From a virus (Duplodnaviria > Heunggongvirae > Uroviricota > Caudoviricetes), in the IMG/VR virus record IMGVR_UViG_3300044765_000092, positions 158,679 through 222,678 of that record: 64,000 bases of DNA; one strand, given 5' to 3'. The notes under the pieces were generated by a model. That model saw nothing but the letters and a program-made list of their open reading frames with translations, was not told where the DNA came from and searched no databases. Position 1 is the stretch's first letter. Every line of letters starts with the position of its first letter. Below are positions 9,448 through 61,899 of this stretch, piece by piece. Both the position numbers and the translations under genes were made by a program.

Positions 9448-9481
9448 GTTGTTCGTGCATCCTGGATAATGCACGAACAAC
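9448..9481. promoter_or_regulatory. perfect 13-bp inverted repeat GTTGTTCGTGCAT-N8-ATGCACGAACAAC inside a 395-bp ORF-free intergenic region
   Basis: Seen directly in the sequence. Candidate operator or RNA hairpin. Confidence 0.4.
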
Positions 9482-11982: not shown

Positions 11983-13269
11983 TTAGTTTCCCTTGACGCA
12001 GAGCACGGCCTTGAGCGTGTGGACCACTTCGACCAGATCTGCCTGATTGGCCATCACCTGATCGATGTCCTTGTACGCCGATGGGATTTCGTCGAGCACC
12101 GATTCATCCTTGCGGCATTCGACACCTTGGGTCTGGGCCACGAGGTCGTCGACAGTGAACAGGCGCTTGGCCTCTTTCCGTCCGTGACGTCGGCCAGCTC
12201 CATGCGAACAACTGCAATACGACTCCGTATTGCCTTTGCCACGCACGATGTAAGACCGCTGGCCCATGGAACCCGGAATGATCCCCAGGTCGCCGGTGCG
12301 AGCACGGATCGCACCCTTGCGCGTCACCCACACGTTCTGGCCGAAGTGGCTCTCCTGCTCCACGTAGTTGTGGTGGCAGTTGATGGCTTCTTCGGTAGTC
12401 TGGAGATCTGGAAATGTACGCTTGAGCGCCGACAGCACGCGACGCATCATAAGATGCCGGTTGATCCAAGCGTAGTTTTGTGCCCAGGTCACGGCCGTCG
12501 TGTATTCCTTGAATTCCGGCGTGCCTTCCGGAAAGTACGCGAGGTCCTTGTCCGGCAGGTTGATGAACCATTTGGCAGCCAACGTCCGTGCCCGATCGAT
12601 GAACGACGTGCCGATCTTGTTGCCGATGCCACGCGAACCTGAGTGGAGCATCACCCATACGTTATGATTTTCGTCCAGGCACAGCTCGATGAAATGGTTG
12701 CCAGAACCCAGAGTCCCGAGTTGAGCCCAGGCATTGTCCACAGTCGTGTCTCCGACCACTGTCCCGATAAAGCCAAGATCGTCGGTCAGAATACGATTAA
12801 ACTCTCGCCGGGCGTCGACGACAGCTTCCTTGTTCTCGACGATCTCCTGTTCGCGCCGATGTGCACCACCAGGACCCAACGGTATGTCACGCTCGATCTG
12901 GTGGCGAATCGCGGTCAAGCTGTCCGGCAGCTGATCGGCCCGTAGATTGGTGCGAACCGCGTTCATCCCGCAGCCGATATCGACACCGACGGCCGCCGGT
13001 ATGATGGCCTTGACCGTGGGCACAACCGATCCGACGGTTGCACCGATCCCCAGGTGGACGTCAGGCATGAGCGCTACACCATTCGGATGAATGAACGGAA
13101 GCCGGGCGATGTTCTTGGCCTGTTGAAGAGCAGCGTCTTCGATGTCGAGGCCTTTGACCACGCGCTCGATCTCCGCGTCGAGTTCGTGGTTGATGTCCGT
13201 GACCACTTTGGTCGTTTCATTGACCCACGCCTTGATCGGCCGCGCGCCATGTTCGTGAATCACCTTCAT
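11983..13269 (-). CDS. rtcB: RtcB RNA 3'-phosphate/2',3'-cyclic-phosphate ligase
   Basis: MPDVHLGIGATVGSVVPT...AIIPAAVGVDIGCGMNAVRT...GTGNHFIE...HSGSRGIGN...INCHHNY...SCSHGAGR are near-identical to the E. coli RtcB motifs. Confidence 0.9.
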   Translation of the reverse strand: MKVIHEHGARPIKAWVNETTKVVTDINHELDAEIERVVKGLDIEDAALQQAKNIARLPFIHPNGVALMPDVHLGIGATVGSVVPTVKAIIPAAVGVDIGCGMNAVRTNLRADQLPDSLTAIRHQIERDIPLGPGGAHRREQEIVENKEAVVDARREFNRILTDDLGFIGTVVGDTTVDNAWAQLGTLGSGNHFIELCLDENHNVWVMLHSGSRGIGNKIGTSFIDRARTLAAKWFINLPDKDLAYFPEGTPEFKEYTTAVTWAQNYAWINRHLMMRRVLSALKRTFPDLQTTEEAINCHHNYVEQESHFGQNVWVTRKGAIRARTGDLGIIPGSMGQRSYIVRGKGNTESYCSCSHGAGRRHGRKEAKRLFTVDDLVAQTQGVECRKDESVLDEIPSAYKDIDQVMANQADLVEVVHTLKAVLCVKGN

Positions 13270-17214: not shown

Positions 17215-17304
17215 TTTAGAGTATGGGTCGGAACTGTCAGAATTGAGAGCAGTCTTTGACAACGTATATCGGCAAAACTACAAGGAGCAACATCAGAGCT
17301 TTCA

Positions 17305-17398
17305 TCGGAATCGCTTCCGAGGCCATATCCAATTTGGCTTCCGTCGTGTGCATAACTCGTGCAGAACTATGCACACGACGGGCAGGACTCGAACCTGC
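17305..17398 (-). ncRNA. second permuted-tRNA-like element: T-arm and 3' acceptor strand, then a 26-nt TGCA-repeat linker, then the 5' acceptor strand and a D-arm-like hairpin
   Basis: GCAGG-TTCGAGT-CCTGC then CCGTCGT-G; linker TGCAtagttcTGCAcgagttaTGCA; then C-ACGACGG-AA-GCC-AAATTGGATAT-GGC. Acceptor pairs 7/7 and extends to an 11-bp helix. The anticodon region is non-canonical. Confidence 0.3.
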
Positions 17399-17448
17399 AA
17401 GCTCATATCACTACAACGATCACGGATAGCCGATAACTTTGTCGATGA

Positions 17449-17478: not shown

Positions 17479-17488
17479 TCATTTACAG
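17479..17488 (-). promoter_or_regulatory. TCATTTACAG motif, copy 4
   Basis: 23 nt downstream of the stop of CDS 17511..18296. Directly upstream of the tRNA-like cluster. Confidence 0.45.
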
Positions 17489-23133: not shown

Positions 23134-23165
23134 CGAAAGGTCGTGCGAATCACGTTCGCACGACC
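23126..23165 (-). terminator. intrinsic terminator: 11-bp perfect stem GGTCGTGCGAA-tcacg-TTCGCACGACC followed by TTTCGTTGCTT in gene sense
   Basis: 33 nt downstream of the stop of CDS 23198..23566. Confidence 0.55.
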
Positions 23166-23197
23166 TTGCCCTTACGCGCGTGGGCGCGCGCGCCTTC

Positions 23198-39009: not shown

Positions 39010-39019
39010 TCATTTACAG
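39010..39019 (-). promoter_or_regulatory. TCATTTACAG motif, copy 8
   Basis: Directly 3' of the stop of CDS 39014..40084. Confidence 0.45.
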
Positions 39020-40084
39020 TATGAACTTGTCGGCAGGCAGCACAGGCGGGCCGCCGAGTTTGCGTGTCCACAGCTGAAGCGCGATCTCAAGCATTGTCGA
39101 TCGGCTTTGATCAATACCCTTCTCGATTTCGTCGTCCTTAAGTTCAATGGAGAAGGCCTCTTCGTAGGCCATTACCAATTCGACGGTATCAAGTGAATCT
39201 GCCCCAAGGTCGCGAACTGTCTTGTTCCAGCCTTGGGCTACAAAGTCAGCCTGTTGAAGACCGAGTTGATCGCAGGTCGTTCGAATAAACTTTTCTTTGA
39301 AGGCGCTGAGACTGATGGTCCAGACCTGGTCCCCAACCTTGTAGCTGGCAGTTTGCAACCAGAAGGCTAATCCCTCGTTGGGGACCACTTTAATCTCGGT
39401 TGTCTTTGCTGTTTTTGCCGCCTTTGGCTTATAGACCGTGTCCTCATCGTCATCATCGTCATCATCGGGATCAGCTGACTTCTTGGGCGGCGTCGACCGC
39501 GGCGCAACACCCCGAGGCGGTCTGTACTTGTTGGTTGGCGCTTCGGTTCGTTCGATAAAAGGATTGTCGTGTACCAGTGGTTCGCCGCCCCACACCCGTT
39601 CGATCTGCTTGTTGATCCAGCGAATTGCCTCTTGTGGATGCCAGTTGCCAAGAACGTGGTTGCAGATGCCGAGAACGTACCATTTGTAGTACGAGCTCGG
39701 AACAAAGCCGACTAGGCTAGGACCGGCGGTGTGCAAGATCCCGTAACCGTCGAGTGCGCAATAGGATCGGCCCTGAACACCGATCCTGAGGTCCAAACCG
39801 CCCTGACCAGCCAACGGCCCCTGAACGACTTGACCCAAGTGAGTGACGATCGGCACTTCGGTCCTCGACCTAGGCCACTGCCGGTCGGCCGGTCGCCCAT
39901 GATCGTAGGCGATGAGGGCAACCATGTCATCGTATCGAAGAGACAGGGGGTTGGCATCCGTCGGTGGTTCGAGCAGCAGGAACATTGGGTTCTTTGCCGC
40001 CTGGTCATAGACACTAGTCCCGGTCCCTACCCTCGTCCGGTCTTGGATGGGCAACAGGTATTGGAAGTTGTTCATTTCTTTCAC
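39014..40084 (-). CDS. fusion protein: unknown N-terminal domain, poly-Asp linker and a C-terminal acyl carrier protein (phosphopantetheine-binding) domain
   Basis: C-terminal [30 protein letters not shown] is nearly identical to E. coli ACP helix II ([30 protein letters not shown]), including the DSL serine. Confidence 0.7.
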   Translation of the reverse strand: [356 protein letters not shown]

Positions 40085-40115: not shown

Positions 40116-40319
40116 CTAGATAGATCTGTCGGTTTGTCGCTCCAGTTCGAGCACCCGTTTCAACGCCTGTACCTCTCGGCTTCGAAAGAAGTCTTGAACC
40201 AGGACGCCGGTCATAAATCCAAGGACAAGGGCCAGCCACGGTGCATCCCCGTAGGCTTGGCCCAGGGCCATGATGGCGCATGCCACTATCCACAGCAACT
40301 CTCGGTTAGTTCTGTCCAT
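40116..40319 (-). CDS. small membrane protein
   Basis: ORF 40116..40382 with the ATG (MDRTNREL) at 40317-40319. Confidence 0.4.
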   Translation of the reverse strand: MDRTNRELLWIVACAIMALGQAYGDAPWLALVLGFMTGVLVQDFFRSREVQALKRVLELERQTDRSI

Positions 40320-40632
40320 CGGTGTTCTCCTGTTCGTCGGTCTGGGTCTCGGCCCAACGTTTGTGGGCTTTGATGGTGGCAACGCCTATAAATGGAGTGA
40401 TGGCCGTCACTACAACCTGAATGGTTACCCATCCCCATTTGCCATCGACAAGCAGTACAAGCCACCATACAACCAATGCACAGGCGGCTAGCCCACCTAG
40501 CATCACTACTGTGATAAGGCCTCCGTCTGAGGCCCAGAATTTCTGTACTACGTTACACAGCTCTTCGAGCCATACTCTAGTGAATGACATCTTCTCGTTC
40601 GTTGGTTCACCTGTGGCTGGTTGTTTGTTCAT
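40306..40632 (-). CDS. membrane protein
   Basis: 108 aa with two transmembrane segments. Confidence 0.45.
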   Translation of the reverse strand: MNKQPATGEPTNEKMSFTRVWLEELCNVVQKFWASDGGLITVVMLGGLAACALVVWWLVLLVDGKWGWVTIQVVVTAITPFIGVATIKAHKRWAETQTDEQENTDGQN

Positions 40633-40653
40633 TGTCGGTCCTTTTCTTTGTCG

Positions 40654-41007
40654 TCAATCATGCTGGTCATCTTTCGCCCGTTCGTCTTTCCATTGATTGA
40701 TCGCTCTACTGGTTATTGGCCATAGAATCGGTGTCAGTACCACTATCATCATTTCTGTTACAGCCCATCCGTAGGCTTTGACCGATACCAGGAACGTGCC
40801 TAAGAATAGCAGGCCAGTGAACGCACATGCGCCTGCTATCATGCAGAGCAGTTCACCAAATTCTGACCACCATTCTCTAATGGCCTTTAGGCAGACCGAC
40901 CACCAGATTTGAACAAAGGTACGGTCGCTGTTCGGCCGCCGCTCTTTTCCTTTATGTTCTACCCTGTCTGAATCCGAATCCGGATCTGTTATCGTTTGTT
41001 CGTTCAT
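40654..41007 (-). CDS. membrane protein
   Basis: ORF 40654..41055. The ATG at 41005-41007 (MNEQTITD) is preceded by AGGAAAGG. First gene of the leftward arm. Confidence 0.5.
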   Translation of the reverse strand: MNEQTITDPDSDSDRVEHKGKERRPNSDRTFVQIWWSVCLKAIREWWSEFGELLCMIAGACAFTGLLFLGTFLVSVKAYGWAVTEMMIVVLTPILWPITSRAINQWKDERAKDDQHD

Positions 41008-41058
41008 TGTCTGGCCTTTCCTTTGTGTGTGCAGAGCACTCGTGTCTAACAACACCTG

Positions 41059-41068
41059 TCATTTACAG
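41059..41068 (-). promoter_or_regulatory. TCATTTACAG motif, copy 9
   Basis: 52 nt upstream of the first leftward gene, at the edge of the divergent switch region. Confidence 0.45.
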
Positions 41069-41530
41069 GTTAAAACCTGTCTGTGTGGTTCACCGTTTTG
41101 ACCCTCTATCCAATGACTCCCCTGGATCTAGCTGATCCACTGGATAGAGGGTTTTTGTGGTCAACCTTCTTTTGGCTCCCATTTGCCCACCCAATTCGCC
41201 ATCTCGTGTATTTGATCTATTTTCGGAGACCCCCTGTTTTTCTCTGTGTCGAATGTTGATGGTGTTTGTCGCGGTCGAGTGTAGTGCGTGTGTGGAACAC
41301 ATTTGTGCTCGTTTTGACGGGTTCATCGTATTTCGTCTGTTTTTCTAGATGGGGCTGTGGTTTTGCCCTGTTTTGATGATCAATTCTGCTTGTTTCTTTA
41401 TTTTTGAGGGTTTGACCAATTTTGATCTAGTTGGGTATCATACCCTAGCTGCCATCGTGTCGTTTTGCTACCCCTCTACTGTACATCTATTACTATTAAG
41501 TGATAACGTGATGCTGCAAAAAGAGGCAAC
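41069..41530. promoter_or_regulatory. divergent intergenic switch region between the leftward and rightward arms; AT-richer; candidate divergent promoters and/or replication origin
   Basis: No ORF. A 12-bp inverted repeat ACCCTCTATCCA...TGGATAGAGGGT at 41101-41152 is followed by TTTTTGTGG. CTGTTTTTCT occurs twice (41238 and 41339), with related CTGTTTTG copies. Confidence 0.45.
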
Positions 41531-41863
41531 TTGACGGATTACACGACATTCACCAGTCAAACTGGAAGATCGGGTTCAACCCCGCAAAACAGGGTTCAGG
41601 TTGTAAATGCGCGGGTCATTAACTTTGGCTCAGAGCATCCTATGTCCAATCTTGCTGCTGTCGCTACCGATATTGCTGGTTGTATCATGGTCGTCAGTGT
41701 GGGTATCTCCTTACTGACGTTTTTGGCTGCAATGGTGATCTGCCAACCCGAACCGTATTCCACTTACGAAAAGGTGGTGGACGTGATACTGCGTATCGTC
41801 ACCTGCACAGGTGTTCTGAGCGCAACCTTTTTCTACTTGATGCTCGGTACTTCTGGAGGCTGA
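41531..41863 (+). CDS. membrane protein
   Basis: 110-aa ORF with hydrophobic segments. The start may be the internal MSNLAAV. Confidence 0.4.
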   Translation: MTDYTTFTSQTGRSGSTPQNRVQVVNARVINFGSEHPMSNLAAVATDIAGCIMVVSVGISLLTFLAAMVICQPEPYSTYEKVVDVILRIVTCTGVLSATFFYLMLGTSGG

Positions 41864-41864
41864 A

Positions 41865-42953
41865 ATGGAACAGTACAAACGACACGATCGGTTGGATGTG
41901 GTGTGTGCTATCCAACACGGATCTCACCTGTACGGAACAGCAAACGAACATTCGGACTACGACTTCAAATGCGTGTATCTGCCGTCGTTGCGGCAAACCA
42001 CGTTCAGCGTACGATCTCCGGGAGTGCGCCGCATCCGCTACGACAAAGACGGAAACACTGTTGGCGACCGCGAGGCGTTGAACGCAGGTGGTTCGGAGAG
42101 CGAGCATTTCACTGTCACTGATTTCGTAGCCGGCTTCTGCGCCGGACAGGCATGGGCGTTCGAGTTCTTGTTTGCAGTTCTGCAGAACAGGATGATCGAT
42201 CTACGGCACGACAGTATCGGGACTAACAGTCGCCGCGAGACTTGCAGTCAACTGTTCTACGAACTGTGTCATGTCCTGGCTGACAATCCGCATCGCAATG
42301 TGCAACCGATGCTCGGGTTTGCGGTTAAGCAAACGATGGACTACGTGCATCGTGGTGAACGGCTTGCGGTCGCACGTCGAGTTGCCGATGCGGTATACGG
42401 AGCGTGGGTTATTTGTGGGCTGGAGCCGAAATTACGGCTCGACTCAATGCTACCCGACCAGCAACTGACTGTCTTGGACCACATTGCGAATACGGCTCGC
42501 GTGGAAATCGGGCGCTCAACCAATGGTGGTCGCGAATTTCGCACACTGATTGTCAATGGTCGGGAGTATTTGGAAACTATGCCGTTGCGCGAGTTCCATC
42601 GGTCGATCAGCGCGTTGATCGAATCATACGGTGCTCGATCCATACGGGCTGAACAGGACGGTGTTGACTGGAAGTCGTTGAGTCACGCTGTTCGTGTGTA
42701 TGATCAGATTGTGGAGTACCTGGACCGCGGAACAATGGTGTTCCCACGCCCGAATCCGGTTCATTTGCTTGCCATCAAGAACGGGGAGCTGCCACTGGAG
42801 TTCGTCAAGCAGCGGATCACGTCCCTGGAACTTTGTGTCAATTCAATGCTCATGGACTCCAAGTTGCCAGACCCCACACCTGAGTGGATCCAGCATGTGT
42901 TTGATCAGTGCTGGCCTCTGGTCCGCACCATGTATCAGGTGACCGACCAATGA
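41865..42953 (+). CDS. Pol-beta-superfamily nucleotidyltransferase-fold protein
   Basis: N-terminal HGSHLYGTANEHSDYDF matches the GS-x9-SDxD NTase signature. Strong GGAGG RBS. 362 aa. Confidence 0.5.
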   Translation: MEQYKRHDRLDVVCAIQHGSHLYGTANEHSDYDFKCVYLPSLRQTTFSVRSPGVRRIRYDKDGNTVGDREALNAGGSESEHFTVTDFVAGFCAGQAWAFEFLFAVLQNRMIDLRHDSIGTNSRRETCSQLFYELCHVLADNPHRNVQPMLGFAVKQTMDYVHRGERLAVARRVADAVYGAWVICGLEPKLRLDSMLPDQQLTVLDHIANTARVEIGRSTNGGREFRTLIVNGREYLETMPLREFHRSISALIESYGARSIRAEQDGVDWKSLSHAVRVYDQIVEYLDRGTMVFPRPNPVHLLAIKNGELPLEFVKQRITSLELCVNSMLMDSKLPDPTPEWIQHVFDQCWPLVRTMYQVTDQ

Positions 42954-43366: not shown

Positions 43367-43907
43367 GCAGCGAGCAGCTCTGCTAGCCCAGATTGATAAA
43401 GCGTTAGGCGAATTAGAAGTCAGTGCCTGTATCGCGGGCATGCACAAGAACAAGACCATCGATCACGACATGCAACGCCGACAGTTCATGGAACTGATCA
43501 GCCAGTCGATCAATCCTGAAGAGAAGTCTACGGGTCAGGTATACGGAATCATCGATCCCGACTATGGTCGTGTCTACACGATGGTACGCAAGCTCGCGTG
43601 GGAAGAAGGCTATGCCGTTGGTCTGCATGGTTCGTTCACGCGTGACCTCGATCTGATGATCGTTCCGTGGGCCGACCACAAGGTATGCGAACCTGAACAC
43701 CTGATTCGGCGGATAGTCAATGCAACAGGTCTTCACCGGCGAGGCGGTCCGCCGACACAGAAGCCGCATGGTCGCCTGTCATGGACTTTGCTGTTCCCAG
43801 AGTTCGGAGATCCACGATTCGTCGACATCTCGATCTTTCCTATGCCACCAGAACAACCTATCACAGCTAGAGAGGCACCCAAAGATGGACAACAAGCAAC
43901 TACTTGA
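43350..43907 (+). CDS. second nucleotidyltransferase-like protein
   Basis: VGLHGSFTRDLDLMIVPW is a compressed GS...DLDL NTase-like motif. ORF 43299..43907. Confidence 0.4.
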   Translation: MTNPTEQRAALLAQIDKALGELEVSACIAGMHKNKTIDHDMQRRQFMELISQSINPEEKSTGQVYGIIDPDYGRVYTMVRKLAWEEGYAVGLHGSFTRDLDLMIVPWADHKVCEPEHLIRRIVNATGLHRRGGPPTQKPHGRLSWTLLFPEFGDPRFVDISIFPMPPEQPITAREAPKDGQQATT

Positions 43908-47337: not shown

Positions 47338-47656
47338 GTGCGTGGCCGTCAATCCTATTAGAAACCGCGAACTGGTCTTGTCGGCATTGTCTGCGAATTT
47401 TGCAAAGTACGTAGACATACAGATTTCAGCCAAGCTTCGGATAGACCGCATCTCGCTGGACCCGTTTGATTCGGACATCGGTTCGCTGGTGACGCAAATC
47501 TCGGCTGAGGAGGACCGACAATTTCTTGAGGATGTCAATCATTATATCTCGACGATCTACATTCCGTCAGCGACTTTAAGGCACATTGTAGTCATGCACG
47601 GCGGTGATGGCGAAAAACGTGTTTGGGATTCCCCAAGATTCTTCACCTACATCTAG
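47330..47656 (+). CDS. hypothetical protein
   Basis: 108-aa ORF. Confidence 0.45.
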   Translation: MSECVAVNPIRNRELVLSALSANFAKYVDIQISAKLRIDRISLDPFDSDIGSLVTQISAEEDRQFLEDVNHYISTIYIPSATLRHIVVMHGGDGEKRVWDSPRFFTYI

Positions 47657-47683
47657 ATCTAGCGCGTACGAGGCCAATTCGCT

Positions 47684-49246: not shown

Positions 49247-49767
49247 CCAAACTGCTTTTCTGTGGTGAGTGTGGTGACCTAGTCAGCCCCGGATTCAAGA
49301 ACAACGATCCTCGGTGGTGTTACTGCCATCGTCACGCTGTCTGGTGGCGTGATGCGAACAAGGGCCTGATCTCCGTGCACGACTCGTGGATGCCACAACG
49401 AAACGGTGGTGATGGTGGTCAAGCCTGGATCGTCGGGCTACACAACGAGGTGCTCCGGGGTCGTGGGCTAATAGCTAATGGTCCGCGAGCACTGCACGAG
49501 AATCCCGCAGATCCAATGGCAATCACTGGATGGACCAAGGGCAATCTCGTGACCGACAAAGAGTTCGTTGAGAACGTATTGGCTGTCACTCCTGATACCT
49601 ATCTGTTCAAGCGAGCAAACAGTCTGGTGATCAGATTCGCTCCCGGATCAACGTCCGACAGCCAGTGGGACGCCACGGTCCCGGTTCCTGGACAAGCCAA
49701 CAACGAAAAGCCCAATAACACGACGGGCTCAGCTGCTGATGCCGATGGACAATCCGCCGGTGTTTAG
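49243..49767 (+). CDS. hypothetical protein with an N-terminal Cys cluster
   Basis: 174-aa ORF. Confidence 0.5.
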   Translation: MTKLLFCGECGDLVSPGFKNNDPRWCYCHRHAVWWRDANKGLISVHDSWMPQRNGGDGGQAWIVGLHNEVLRGRGLIANGPRALHENPADPMAITGWTKGNLVTDKEFVENVLAVTPDTYLFKRANSLVIRFAPGSTSDSQWDATVPVPGQANNEKPNNTTGSAADADGQSAGV

Positions 49768-49875
49768 CAATTTTGTATTGGTACTGTTGTCAATCAACGT
49801 GACGTTCGTGTTGTTTGTGCTCTACACGTTGATCAAGGCGGTTGCCAAGTTCATCTCTAATCTGATTGATCGACC

Positions 49876-50034
49876 ATGAAGCGAATCCTCTTTGTCCTGG
49901 CCCTGGCCGTTGTGTCTATCACTTCGTTTGCCACTCCGGTCCAACAATTCAACACCAAGCCCGTCGATGTCACAATCGACATTCGCTGCTGCACGGAAGA
50001 CAGCCTGAACTGTTGCGGTCCCCGCCTTCCGTAA
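49876..50034 (+). CDS. 52-aa secreted cysteine-rich peptide, below the ORF-track cutoff
   Basis: MKRILFVLALAVVSITSFA signal peptide, then ...IRCCTEDSLNCCGPRLP. The ATG overlaps the stop of a preceding roughly 30-aa hydrophobic ORF (ATGA). Confidence 0.4.
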   Translation: MKRILFVLALAVVSITSFATPVQQFNTKPVDVTIDIRCCTEDSLNCCGPRLP

Positions 50035-50041
50035 TGGAACT

Positions 50042-50284
50042 ATGACTACCACCATTAGTGCGCTGCCGTTCCACGTAACGATCAATGATCCAGTTGGCGC
50101 GTCGTACTATGATGGTACGCCACATCAACTTTCGTATCGATTGATGTTCACCACGGCTGAAGTTCACGGAATTCATATTCTGCACAGACTCGTGCCGGAT
50201 GAGAGTGCGCGCAACGCTCTGATCCACCGACTGCTCACTGAACCGAATGGTACGCACGGTCGATTGTCGTGGCAACGAGATTGA
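50042..50284 (+). CDS. hypothetical protein
   Basis: 80-aa ORF. Last gene before the terminator. Confidence 0.45.
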   Translation: MTTTISALPFHVTINDPVGASYYDGTPHQLSYRLMFTTAEVHGIHILHRLVPDESARNALIHRLLTEPNGTHGRLSWQRD

Positions 50285-50317
50285 CAGTTCTAATTTGATT
50301 CTCCCGCGCGCGCCCAA

Positions 50318-50358
50318 GGGGCCAGTTCCGGTATGGAACTGGCCCCTTTTCTTTTGTG
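50318..50358 (+). terminator. intrinsic terminator (12-bp stem GGGGCCAGTTCC-ggtat-GGAACTGGCCCC followed by TTTTCTTTTGTG)
   Basis: Textbook rho-independent terminator, read directly. Confidence 0.75.
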
Positions 50359-50368
50359 CTTTCACTTT

Positions 50369-50402
50369 TCGTTTTGCGGGTTTTTGCTGCAAGTGCTAGT
50401 TT
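50369..50402 (+). promoter_or_regulatory. candidate promoter of the structural operon: CGTTTTGCGG, a 17-nt spacer, then TAGTTT
   Basis: Shares the TTTTGCGG box with the minus-strand element at 31449-31460. Both lie just downstream of terminators. Confidence 0.3.
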
Positions 50403-50458
50403 GATCATGCCGCGAAAGCGGAATCAACTGCAACACCACTGTGAAGGAGTTTGCGCAC

Positions 50459-52871: not shown

Positions 52872-53930
52872 ATGAAATCCAAGACCCCTGTGCTCGCGAC
52901 CGAGTATCGCGTCCCTGGCTCGATCGAAAACCTGGTCGGCCGCAACGGCGAAGTCAACGCCAGCAACAAGAAGGATCTGCTCCAGCAGCAGCTCAAGCTT
53001 CTGTCGGCTACTTCGCGTGGCGAAGTGACCCTGGCAGCCGCCCAAGACTCGCGCACGAGTGCTCAGCGCAACCGTGAACTGGTGCAAGCCATGTTCCAGT
53101 CGAGCGAAGCTCACGCCGAGATCGGCCAAGTGATGGCCACGAACCTGTACCAGACGGCCAACCGCCGTGGTTTTGCTCGTAAGTTCCTGGGTCGCCAAGA
53201 ACTGGTGCAAGGCCAATTCCCGGTTGCAAAGCTGCGTCGCAAGGACGTGTCCGTGGTGTACTCGACTTCGCCTACCAAGGTTGAGTCGCAGATCATCCGT
53301 GACAAGACCTTCACCCCGCCGGAAATCATGCTGGAAGCTCGCCCGTTCGTCGAACAGCGCGAAATCAACACCAGCTCTGGCGACGTGCTGGAAGAGAAGT
53401 ACACGGAAGCCATGGAATCCATCATGGTCGGTGAAGACCGTCTGTGGTATCAAGCTGCCAACGCCACCATCGGTGTGGACAACGACCTGACCATCGTGTC
53501 GGGTACGCTGACCCCGCTGACTCTGGCCGAAGTTCGCACCCAAGTGGCTCGTTGGAACCTGTCGGTGACCAACATGCTGATGGCTGCTGACCTGTGGCAA
53601 GACATCATCGGTGACTCGGACTTCATCCAGGCTATCGAGCCGGTGTCGCGTCACGAGCTGATCATGACCGGTGAACTGGCTGTTCTGTACGGCATGGCTC
53701 TGACGAGCGATGCGTACCGTCACCCGGAACACAAGGTCCTGAACCAGGGTGAGTTCTTCGCCATCGCGGCGCCGGAAACCCACGGTCAGTACACCGACCG
53801 TGGCGGCATCGAGACCGAAACGCTGACCGCTGCTACCGAGAAGGTGCCGGGCCGTGGCTGGCTGATGTACGAAGCGTTCTCGCTCGTGATCGCCAACACT
53901 CGTTCCGTGGCCAAGGGCATTCGCCGTTGA
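52872..53930 (+). CDS. putative major capsid protein
   Basis: 352 aa, inside the head module. Confidence 0.4.
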   Translation: MKSKTPVLATEYRVPGSIENLVGRNGEVNASNKKDLLQQQLKLLSATSRGEVTLAAAQDSRTSAQRNRELVQAMFQSSEAHAEIGQVMATNLYQTANRRGFARKFLGRQELVQGQFPVAKLRRKDVSVVYSTSPTKVESQIIRDKTFTPPEIMLEARPFVEQREINTSSGDVLEEKYTEAMESIMVGEDRLWYQAANATIGVDNDLTIVSGTLTPLTLAEVRTQVARWNLSVTNMLMAADLWQDIIGDSDFIQAIEPVSRHELIMTGELAVLYGMALTSDAYRHPEHKVLNQGEFFAIAAPETHGQYTDRGGIETETLTAATEKVPGRGWLMYEAFSLVIANTRSVAKGIRR

Positions 53931-54778: not shown

Positions 54779-54811
54779 AAAGTGGGCCTTCGGGCCCACT
54801 TTGTCTTTTGG
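54779..54811 (+). terminator. intrinsic terminator (10-bp stem AAAGTGGGCC-TTCG-GGCCCACTTT followed by GTCTTTTGG)
   Basis: UUCG tetraloop hairpin plus U-tract, 9 nt after the upstream stop. Confidence 0.7.
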
Positions 54812-56011: not shown

Positions 56012-56047
56012 CTTTCATCAGACTAGATCTAGACTCAGGAGCTTTCC

Positions 56048-60834: not shown

Positions 60835-61899
60835 ATGAGCGAGCACAACGCCGATTCCATGCGCCAGCACCCAGTCGATCCTCGACGTTCAGTCAGAGTA
60901 GAGGAGGTTCGACAGGAATTCCATCCGTTCCCCGGTCGGGGCACTTCTCCAGCTATGGCCCAAGCAGCGCATCAACAAGCGCAATTCCAGGGCATCCCAC
61001 CGAATCCACCATCTAGTGGCGTTGCGTCTACACAAGCCGGCCACCACTACACACACATACACGGGCCTGACATTTCCCCCAGAGCAACACAGACGACCAT
61101 GACTTCAACCGGCGGACCATGGACCCAAGTGAAGTCGTTCGCTGAACAGAATCCCGAGTTCTACTCGTTTGAGTTGCCTTCGCGGTTTGCGTTCTATCCG
61201 TTCAAGACCATTAGTGCCAAGTATCTGACTGGCCTGCATATCAGCAAGATCAATCGGGCAAATACTGAAGGACGTATCCAGCATCTGGTTGAGGCGTTGA
61301 GCTCGACACTGGAGCCCGGGATCAGCGCGTTTGATCTGACGCCTGCTGACTTTTACTACTTCATGTACTGGCACAGGGTGAACTCGTACCCAAAGAGCCC
61401 GATGAAGATCACGGCTCAGTGCCAGAATCCCAAGCACATTCAAGACGTGCTCGCGCAGAAGTTGCCGGAGAAGAGCCTGGACATCGTCGACATTCTGAAC
61501 AAGACGACGCTGGATGTCAAAGACTTCAACGGCCTGCCTGAAGGCATGCAGCAATTGGCCGAGCACCTTGATCTCGATGTCGAGCGCATGCGCGATACGA
61601 TTGAGCTATCGGATCACGTGTTAGACTCTGAGGACGGGGACCCTGAGTTTGTTTATCTGGCGCAGTACGCGGCGTTTTTGCGTCGTAAGCCAGAGTGCGA
61701 AACCCTGCTACAACGAGTGGAAGTAGTCAGGTCCATGAGCCCCGATACCATTAGCGAACTCGATGAGTACATTCATGCTGTGTCGACCGACGCTTATGGG
61801 GTTAAGGAGTATGCAAACGTTCGATGCACGGAGTGTGGCGCTTCTACGCGAGTTCAAGTCTCGCTAGAAGCGCACCATTTTCTTCCGCAGCGTAACTGA
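60835..61899 (+). CDS. hypothetical tail-module protein (position of a tail assembly chaperone)
   Basis: 354 aa with a C-terminal CxxC. Lies between the tube-like genes and the tape-measure gene. Confidence 0.45.
   Translation: MSEHNADSMRQHPVDPRRSVRVEEVRQEFHPFPGRGTSPAMAQAAHQQAQFQGIPPNPPSSGVASTQAGHHYTHIHGPDISPRATQTTMTSTGGPWTQVKSFAEQNPEFYSFELPSRFAFYPFKTISAKYLTGLHISKINRANTEGRIQHLVEALSSTLEPGISAFDLTPADFYYFMYWHRVNSYPKSPMKITAQCQNPKHIQDVLAQKLPEKSLDIVDILNKTTLDVKDFNGLPEGMQQLAEHLDLDVERMRDTIELSDHVLDSEDGDPEFVYLAQYAAFLRRKPECETLLQRVEVVRSMSPDTISELDEYIHAVSTDAYGVKEYANVRCTECGASTRVQVSLEAHHFLPQRN

Follow-up and report, generated by a model that had tools for sequence, protein, structure and literature searches.

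The late promoters of phage T4 have the sequence TATAAATA and are read by gp55 and gp33 with the sliding clamp. Iterons are typically repeats of 17-22 bp, regularly spaced beside or inside an initiator gene, and at least three to four of them are usual. The junction described here, at which the genes of an uncultured phage change strand, is like the divergent control regions of large lytic phages in that a non-coding, AT-rich spacer occupies the strand switch and in that this spacer is furnished with outward promoter-like elements, a host-type -35/-10 site, curved T-tracts and a terminator-like hairpin. It differs from them in that the spacer is long (634 bp) and that a sigma70-like site is present on one arm only, and the comparison is drawn from sequence only. 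With modest confidence, we read the gap as a non-coding divergent transcription-control region and not as an origin of the iteron type. An earlier note on this DNA, made from its letters alone, had proposed either a divergent promoter hub or an origin built on iteron-like repeats. The hub fits the sequence, with outward copies of the word TGTAAATG and a sigma70-like site that faces right. The iterons are not supported, and an origin is unsupported and unlikely.

The source is an uncultured jumbo myovirus of ~238 kb, distantly akin to phiRSL1 and BcepSauron. The window, i.e. the whole stretch of 64,000 nucleotides that was analysed, makes up 64 of ~238 kb (27% of the genome), and a protein adjoining the gap is also recorded on a contig of 238,018 bp. 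Within the window lies the gene for the major head protein (52872-53930), which has 52-56% identity to the Burkholderia phages BcepSauron and BcepSaruman and the Ralstonia phage phiRSL1, together with genes for the tail sheath and RtcB and six tRNA genes. Gene calls were taken from an identical 55.6-kb assembly of the same phage that comes from another data set. Between 31.9 kb and 41007 every call is on the minus strand, between 41642 and 52.9 kb every call is on the plus strand, and the six tRNA genes are all on the minus strand, exactly the switch that had been noticed before. The left (minus-strand) arm carries the tRNAs, RtcB and nucleotide metabolism, and the neighbours of the gap encode small membrane proteins, an acyl-carrier-like protein, nucleotide kinases, a nucleotidase, a nucleotidyltransferase, a phosphoesterase and proteins without assignment. 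The junction itself is framed as follows:

40654-41007, minus strand: first left-arm gene, 117 aa, Shine-Dalgarno AAGGAAAGG, start ATG 41007.
41008-41641, no strand: full non-coding gap, 634 bp, between ATG 41007 (minus) and ATG 41642 (plus).
41642-41863, plus strand: first right-arm gene, 73 aa, start ATG 41642 according to the gene caller.

The product of the first left-arm gene is read as a small membrane protein from its hydrophobic sequence, and that of the first right-arm gene is likewise read as a small membrane protein. The 117-aa protein is a weak paralogue of the product of the next gene (40306-40632), and its only match among 5.8 billion proteins is to itself. Since the flanking genes are lineage-specific, paralogous and without homologues, the region appears to be evolving fast. 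The right-arm gene may alternatively encode 110 aa from a TTG at 41531 that follows an AAGAGG Shine-Dalgarno sequence. This choice fixes the extent of the gap, which had been described as an AT-richer stretch of 460 bp: the AT-richness is confirmed, but the length becomes 634 bp if the right gene starts at ATG 41642, and the right edge falls at 41530 only with TTG 41531 as the start codon.

The G+C content of the gap is 44-45%, compared with ~55% across the window, and its plus strand is T-rich (AT skew -0.295). Both the lowest-GC 60 bp of the 64 kb (41369-41428, 30%) and its lowest-GC 300 bp (41207-41506, 41.7%) fall inside the gap. The genome is otherwise tightly packed; the only other gap of this size, at 49768-50458, holds small ORFs and a terminator. 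Two ORFs in the gap were considered as small genes, at 41090-41326 on the minus strand and at 41349-41534 on the plus strand, and were rejected since they show neither a coding GC1/2/3 pattern nor a Shine-Dalgarno sequence; the plus-strand ORF includes the sigma70-like site. Rfam 15 gave no match at E <= 1 in 40800-41800, and the only matches in the window that reach gathering score are the six tRNAs, all of them outside the gap. A comparison of the gap with the rest of the window returned as its best match a 14-mer (E 0.12). The space of the gap is not claimed by a coding signal, an Rfam family or a repeat array.

Relatives of the junction are scarce. No nucleotide similarity emerged when 50,697 phage records were searched with megablast and blastn, and nothing was found when IMG/VR viral contigs were scanned with the nucleotidyltransferase protein (gene 41865-42953) or when JGI metagenome contigs were scanned with a 108-aa neighbour or with the arms of the hairpin described below. 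Homologues of the nucleotidyltransferase, at 45% identity or less, lie in a different, co-oriented context and have no equivalent junction, nor is there one in the genomes of phiRSL1 and BcepSauron. The sole close relative (L002, 98% identical) begins at window position 41541 and shows one substitution ahead of the gene.

The case for transcription control begins with a motif that recurs across the window, (A)ACTGTAAATGA, whose 8-nt core is TGTAAATG. The core is present in 11 copies where 0.94 would be expected, a count reached in none of 100 shuffles, and every one of the 11 is in the sense orientation of the local genes, ten being minus-strand copies within the left arm and one a plus-strand copy where the right arm begins. 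The following copies and the palindrome beside them matter most for the gap:

41059-41069, minus strand: left-arm copy CCTGTAAATGA, with the core TGTAAATG at 41067-41060, ending 52 nt upstream of ATG 41007.
41065-41080, no strand: small palindrome ACAGGTT-AA-AACCTGT, which overlaps the left motif copy and is part of inverted repeat I2.
41600-41610, plus strand: right-arm copy GTTGTAAATGC, with the core at 41602-41609, 32 nt upstream of ATG 41642.

The left copy is the ninth that the earlier note had counted, and it does flank the gap on the minus strand at 41059-41069. The right-hand copy (41602-41609) had escaped that note. With it, two outward-facing copies bracket the gap, and their flanks form a 21-nt inverted repeat of 76% (I2). 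The right-hand copy is intact in the close relative; it departs from the flanking consensus, with GGT/C instead of AAC/A, and it would lie within the gene if translation begins at TTG 41531. Most of those copies, among the 11, that were checked lie roughly 25-65 nt upstream of a start codon, often overlapping the stop codon of the gene before, and about seven have a hairpin of -15 to -25 kcal/mol after them, at the place where the 5' end of an RNA would be. The copy at 17487 precedes a non-coding, Y-RNA-like element rather than an ORF, which speaks for a signal in transcription and not in translation. No -35-like partner is conserved among the copies.

Given its over-representation and its uniform sense orientation, TGTAAATG is probably a phage-specific promoter class, and the left copy at 41059-41069 is a probable promoter element of the left arm. 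It could alternatively be an RNA-processing signal or a signal of another kind. Like the T4 late promoters, TGTAAATG is a short, A/T-rich 8-mer, strictly strand-specific, usually placed tens of nucleotides before starts and free of a conserved -35 partner, and six of its eight positions match TATAAATA. However, two positions differ, and the copies lie on the arm for tRNAs and nucleotide metabolism, with none before the head or sheath genes. The word was not found in phiRSL1, BcepSauron or the other related loci examined. A repeated word of phiRSL1, CCCATCGAAA-GGAG, was considered as its analogue and rejected, being an element of the ribosome-binding-site type. Likewise, gp101 of BcepSauron, labelled 'RNA polymerase', was considered as a clue to a phage sigma factor and set aside, as it belongs to no Pfam family and has no homologue in the window.

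The right arm has a second candidate for its promoter, which lies in the most AT-rich part of the gap:

41340-41428, plus strand: phased T-tracts, starting at 41340, 41361, 41371, 41401 and 41420.
41412-41441, plus strand: sigma70-like site TTGACC-18-TATCAT, which faces the right arm and has 10/12 consensus matches.

In an approximate position-weight scan, this site has the top score of ~128,000 positions in the window. Judged against shuffles of the gap itself, a site as good has P ~0.05, i.e. it is marginal, and a separate promoter scan of the region gave two sites against 1.8 expected, which is no enrichment. It is nonetheless a plausible promoter, and transcription from it would start near 41448, with a further AT-rich block of ~28% G+C (41479-41508) 30-60 nt downstream. 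The T-tracts have a periodicity of 10-11 bp (P = 0.004 against mononucleotide shuffles), so that 41340-41428 can be read as curved DNA resembling an UP element, which precedes the sigma70-like site and partly overlaps it. No comparable site faces left: the best, TTATCA-17-TACAGT at 41506, ranks only 69 in the window.

Between the left motif copy and these rightward elements stands the most conspicuous structure of the gap:

41100-41161, plus strand: terminator-like hairpin with a 13-bp outer stem, made up of an exact 12-bp repeat and one G-U pair.
41123-41139: nested 6-bp stem TGGATC/GATCCA inside the hairpin.
41153-41161, plus strand: T-run TTTTTGTGG, directly 3' of the hairpin.

The 12-bp inverted repeat, ACCCTCTATCCA (41101-41112) and TGGATAGAGGGT (41141-41152) followed by TTTTTGTGG, is exactly as it had first been described. 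The hairpin (41100-41152) has a predicted energy of -31.5 kcal/mol (z = -4.9), none of 200 shuffles folds as well, and it is among the most stable terminator-like structures of the window. A scan of 40950-41750 in 100-nt windows on both strands found nothing but this hairpin that beats shuffles. Perfect 12-bp arms within 40 nt are by estimate expected roughly 0.15 times per 64 kb, and it is very unlikely that a perfect repeat of this length, a nested stem and a T-run came together by chance. On the plus strand the stem runs directly into TTTTT, whereas on the minus strand it is followed by CAAAACGG, with no U-run. Since the U-run is confined to one strand, the hairpin looks like a terminator, and we infer that it would terminate plus-strand transcription.

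With intrinsic terminators it shares the stable stem directly before TTTTT on one strand only, but it differs from them in an interior of 26-28 nt that contains a nested hairpin and in a stem that is only moderately GC-rich, about half G+C. It was missed by the standard terminator scan because that scan allows loops of 3-8 nt only. Canonical intrinsic terminators are present elsewhere in the right arm, at 50316-50348, 54782-54807 and 61833-61885, and the polymerase that reads this strand therefore probably responds to such signals, so that the hairpin, for all the size of its interior loop, can reasonably be read as a terminator. In contrast to the canonical terminators at 50316-50348 and 61833-61885, the hairpin sits where a gene arm begins and is not preceded by a gene of its own orientation. 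Neither such a gene nor a clear promoter was recognised upstream, and which transcript it would terminate is a matter of conjecture.

A proposed scenario combines these elements. Leftward transcription of the minus-strand arm would start at the TGTAAATG element at 41060-41067, and rightward transcription would start at the host-type, sigma70-like promoter at 41412-41441, set in curved and most AT-rich DNA. The second TGTAAATG element, at 41602-41609, might also launch the right arm. In such a system, TGTAAATG would act as a short promoter element without a -35 box, and the transcription apparatus that reads it would presumably be encoded or modified by the phage. The hairpin and T-run at 41100-41161 would serve as an intrinsic terminator, or insulator, for the plus strand only. 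It would keep antisense RNAs that run rightward out of the left arm from entering the promoters of the right arm.

What had been taken for iterons are T-rich words. The 10-mer CTGTTTTTCT does occur twice, but at 41234-41243 and 41337-41346, both on the plus strand and 103 bp apart, rather than at 41238 and 41339 with a spacing of 101 bp. One repeated 10-mer in a gap of this kind has P = 0.18-0.28 against chance, and such a repeat is to be expected because the DNA is T-rich. Degenerate repeat families of width 10-16 reach two or three copies at most (P 0.28-0.99 against shuffles). A family of width 18, with up to five mismatches, reaches four copies (P 0.04, uncorrected). The 8-9-mers of the gap are mildly enriched overall (P 0.01-0.06), and none of its 5-8-mers is significant after correction for the number of words tested. 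One 9-mer stands out somewhat, and its copies are:

41232-41240, plus strand: CCCTGTTTT, first copy.
41366-41374, plus strand: CCCTGTTTT, second copy.
41586-41594, minus strand: CCCTGTTTT, third copy, 8 nt upstream of the right motif copy.

All three copies of CCCTGTTTT in the window lie in the gap, where 0.2 would be expected, and P is 0.018 for any 9-mer to reach three copies. We regard CCCTGTTTT as a weak candidate for a regulator-binding word, not as an iteron array. More generally, the T-rich words CTGTTTTTCT, CCCTGTTTT and TTTGATCTA would mostly reflect skewed composition and at most be regulator-binding sites. The gap has AT-rich DNA and some short repeated words in common with iteron origins such as lambda ori, P1 and those of plasmids, but the best families here are two to three copies of 10-16 nt, at chance level, and no initiator gene was found. 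No family of at least three repeats is present at iteron length, with 17-22 bp and regular, phased spacing, and the iteron claim is not supported.

It is possible to imagine an origin without iterons, of the kind in which a promoter is joined to an unwinding element, as in T4 oriF and oriG or the primary origin of T7. At the strand switch, a transcript from the sigma70-like site or from TGTAAATG would form an R-loop or primer in the AT-rich DNA, from which replication would proceed in both directions. We consider this unlikely. The gap contains the lowest-GC 60-bp and 300-bp stretches as well as the block of ~28% G+C at 41479-41508, it has a promoter-like site embedded in AT-rich DNA, and genes diverge from it. 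Thus it shares with the T4 and T7 origins a promoter-like site that adjoins the most easily melted DNA. However, AT-rich DNA that resembles an unwinding element also occurs away from origins, intergenic control regions in general combine AT-rich DNA with a promoter, and the resemblance to origins made of a promoter and a DUE is generic to promoter regions. Nor does the gap have the MotA-type middle promoter or T7-type promoter of those origins, or replication genes nearby: a scan of 30 nearby proteins, many of which have no recognisable family, brought up no initiator, helicase, primase or polymerase. DnaA boxes are likewise absent from the gap, as are iterons, and the relaxed box TTWTNCACA occurs twice in the window, both times outside it.

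Nucleotide skews were followed over the window only (64 of ~238 kb). Cumulative A-T skew has its minimum at 42922, keto skew its maximum at 42742 and purine skew its minimum at 41854, i.e. 0.2-1.3 kb to the right of the gap and 0.4-1.8 kb from its centre. Yet the sense strand is A-rich in both arms, so that the turns near the gap coincide with the transcription switch, and a switch of coding strand would by itself produce a turn in skew. The G-C skew, in contrast, stays flat between 39 and 50 kb and peaks at 49582, outside the gap, and the whole view is limited to 27% of the genome. The skews thus point neither towards an origin nor away from one.

The hairpin could also be put to another use if the gap is the source of small non-coding RNAs, one or several, which we likewise think improbable. 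Its most concrete form is a cis-antisense RNA of ~100-160 nt on the plus strand that would start at 40970-41060 and end at the hairpin near 41158. Such an RNA would cover the ribosome-binding site, the 5' UTR and the TGTAAATG element of the first left-arm gene and could thereby repress it, by analogy with sar of P22 and OOP of lambda. In its favour are the very stable, terminator-like hairpin, with a T-run on the plus strand only and no co-oriented protein-coding gene upstream, and weak plus-strand sites upstream from which it might start, TTGACC-18-AAGAAT (40778) and CTGAAT-16-TATCGT (40968). However, these candidates rank only 23 (40778) and 240 (40968) in the window, there is no Rfam match at E <= 1, and no segment of the gap other than the hairpin folds better than shuffles. 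A bolder proposal, also doubtful, is that the gap is an iteron-free, promoter-primed origin of a new jumbo-phage lineage, with the hairpin and CCCTGTTTT as its recognition elements, or that the hairpin ends a cis-antisense RNA that gates the whole left arm.

At the other extreme, the gap might be an AT-rich spacer without function, perhaps the remains of decayed small genes, in which the hairpin and the T-rich words have no role beyond that of the flanking promoters. Most repeat statistics are indeed at chance level, the sigma70-like site is marginal, and the flanking genes, for lineage-specific small membrane proteins without homologues, are paralogous, which suggests a fast-evolving region. 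We nevertheless hold it to be decidedly unlikely, since the perfect 12-bp repeat with its nested stem and T-run is very hard to obtain by chance (z -4.9) and the genome is otherwise tightly packed. That the gap is a genome end or packaging region (a terminal-repeat boundary, or a pac or cos site), so that in virion DNA the two arms would point towards or away from a terminus instead of a control region, is very improbable: strand-switch points and host-type early promoters lie beside genome ends in several large phages, and the contig of the close relative breaks inside the gap, at the equivalent of 41541, but a contig break in a low-coverage metagenome is uninformative, the 55.6-kb assembly from the other data set runs straight through the gap, and no terminase gene was recognised beside it (a 566-aa 'ATPase' at 50441 being left aside).

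If the divergent transcription-control region that we favour is real, a region of 634 bp launches and insulates the transcription of two large gene blocks, and TGTAAATG offers a handle for mapping the transcription programme of the phage. Annotation would gain operon boundaries, temporal classes and an initial idea of which factor recognises the motif. No general picture would change, as divergent AT-rich promoter regions are routine in phage genomes; the idea of an origin is the only reading that would add something, and it is without positive evidence. The small palindrome at 41065-41080 is a possible operator.

The recurrent word (A)ACTGTAAATGA probably defines a promoter class specific to this phage. 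Its 8-nt core, TGTAAATG, occurs 11 times in the window versus 0.94 expected, and all copies are in sense orientation:

5802-41067, minus strand, ten copies of the core
41602-41609, plus strand, one copy of the core

The word often overlaps the stop codon of the upstream gene and often has a stable hairpin after it. Within the window it was not found where the structural genes of the right arm lie, nor was it found in the loci examined of the distantly related phages phiRSL1 and BcepSauron. phiRSL1 has a repeated word of its own, (T)CCCATCGAAA(A/C)GGAG, present six times in 50 kb (positions 1-50000 of its sequence, L006) and each time on the coding strand. A start codon immediately follows five of the six copies, the sixth (at 43581) having no ATG nearby. 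This word looks like an extended ribosome-binding-site element and not a promoter.

One copy of TGTAAATG, at 17487, resides about 60 nt upstream of an element resembling Y RNA; the position of RtcB is listed with it:

17289-17427, minus strand, Y RNA-like element
11983-13269, RtcB

The element is a sub-threshold match to the YrlA (Y RNA-like) family of Rfam (33.6 bits, E = 8e-6, where the gathering score is 69), and it includes a tRNA-like T-arm (GCAGGTTCGAGTCCTGC) as well as a perfect 14-bp hairpin (17341-17381). No TROVE/Rsr protein was recognised in a scan of six proteins neighbouring the element, one of which is 3'-5' exoribonuclease-like. Two more hairpins of the left arm have a GTCGTG(T)GC-type core in common with this one, all three being perfect and 13-14 bp long:

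9448-9481, perfect hairpin
17341-17381, perfect hairpin within the Y RNA-like element
23137-23167, perfect hairpin with a minus-strand T-run after it

Because of its T-run, the last of these looks like a terminator.

Towards the gap between the two arms, three left-arm genes deserve mention:

39014-40084, minus strand, gene for a 356-aa protein that ends in a phosphopantetheine-attachment (acyl-carrier) domain at its C-terminus
40306-40632, minus strand, second gene from the gap
40654-41007, minus strand, first gene from the gap

The products of the two genes nearest the gap are small, weak paralogues (BLASTP E = 5e-7, 18% identity) that we read from their sequences as putative membrane proteins, and the 31 nt comprising their ribosome-binding sites and start codons (40621-40651 versus 40996-41026) are 87% identical. 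The 117-aa protein encoded at 40654-41007 has no homologue among 5.8 billion proteins. In phiRSL1, the acyl carrier protein annotated beside RtcB is only 87 aa long, whereas the 356-aa protein is far longer.

The palindrome CTAGATCTAG occurs twice, at 47652-47661 and 56022-56031, both times in a short intergenic spacer with a start codon 15-22 nt downstream. GATCTAG is found at eight loci overall, a count not above expectation, with seven of the eight between 41 and 61 kb, two of these seven (41125 and 41424) being in the gap.

The second large stretch of the window without a called gene, 49768-50458, seems to hold several small ORFs, one of which has a signal-peptide-like start. At its end stand the window's strongest canonical terminator (50316-50348, a 14-bp perfect stem plus TTTTCTTTTG) and a T-rich stretch, directly after which the head module begins with its 566-aa gene.
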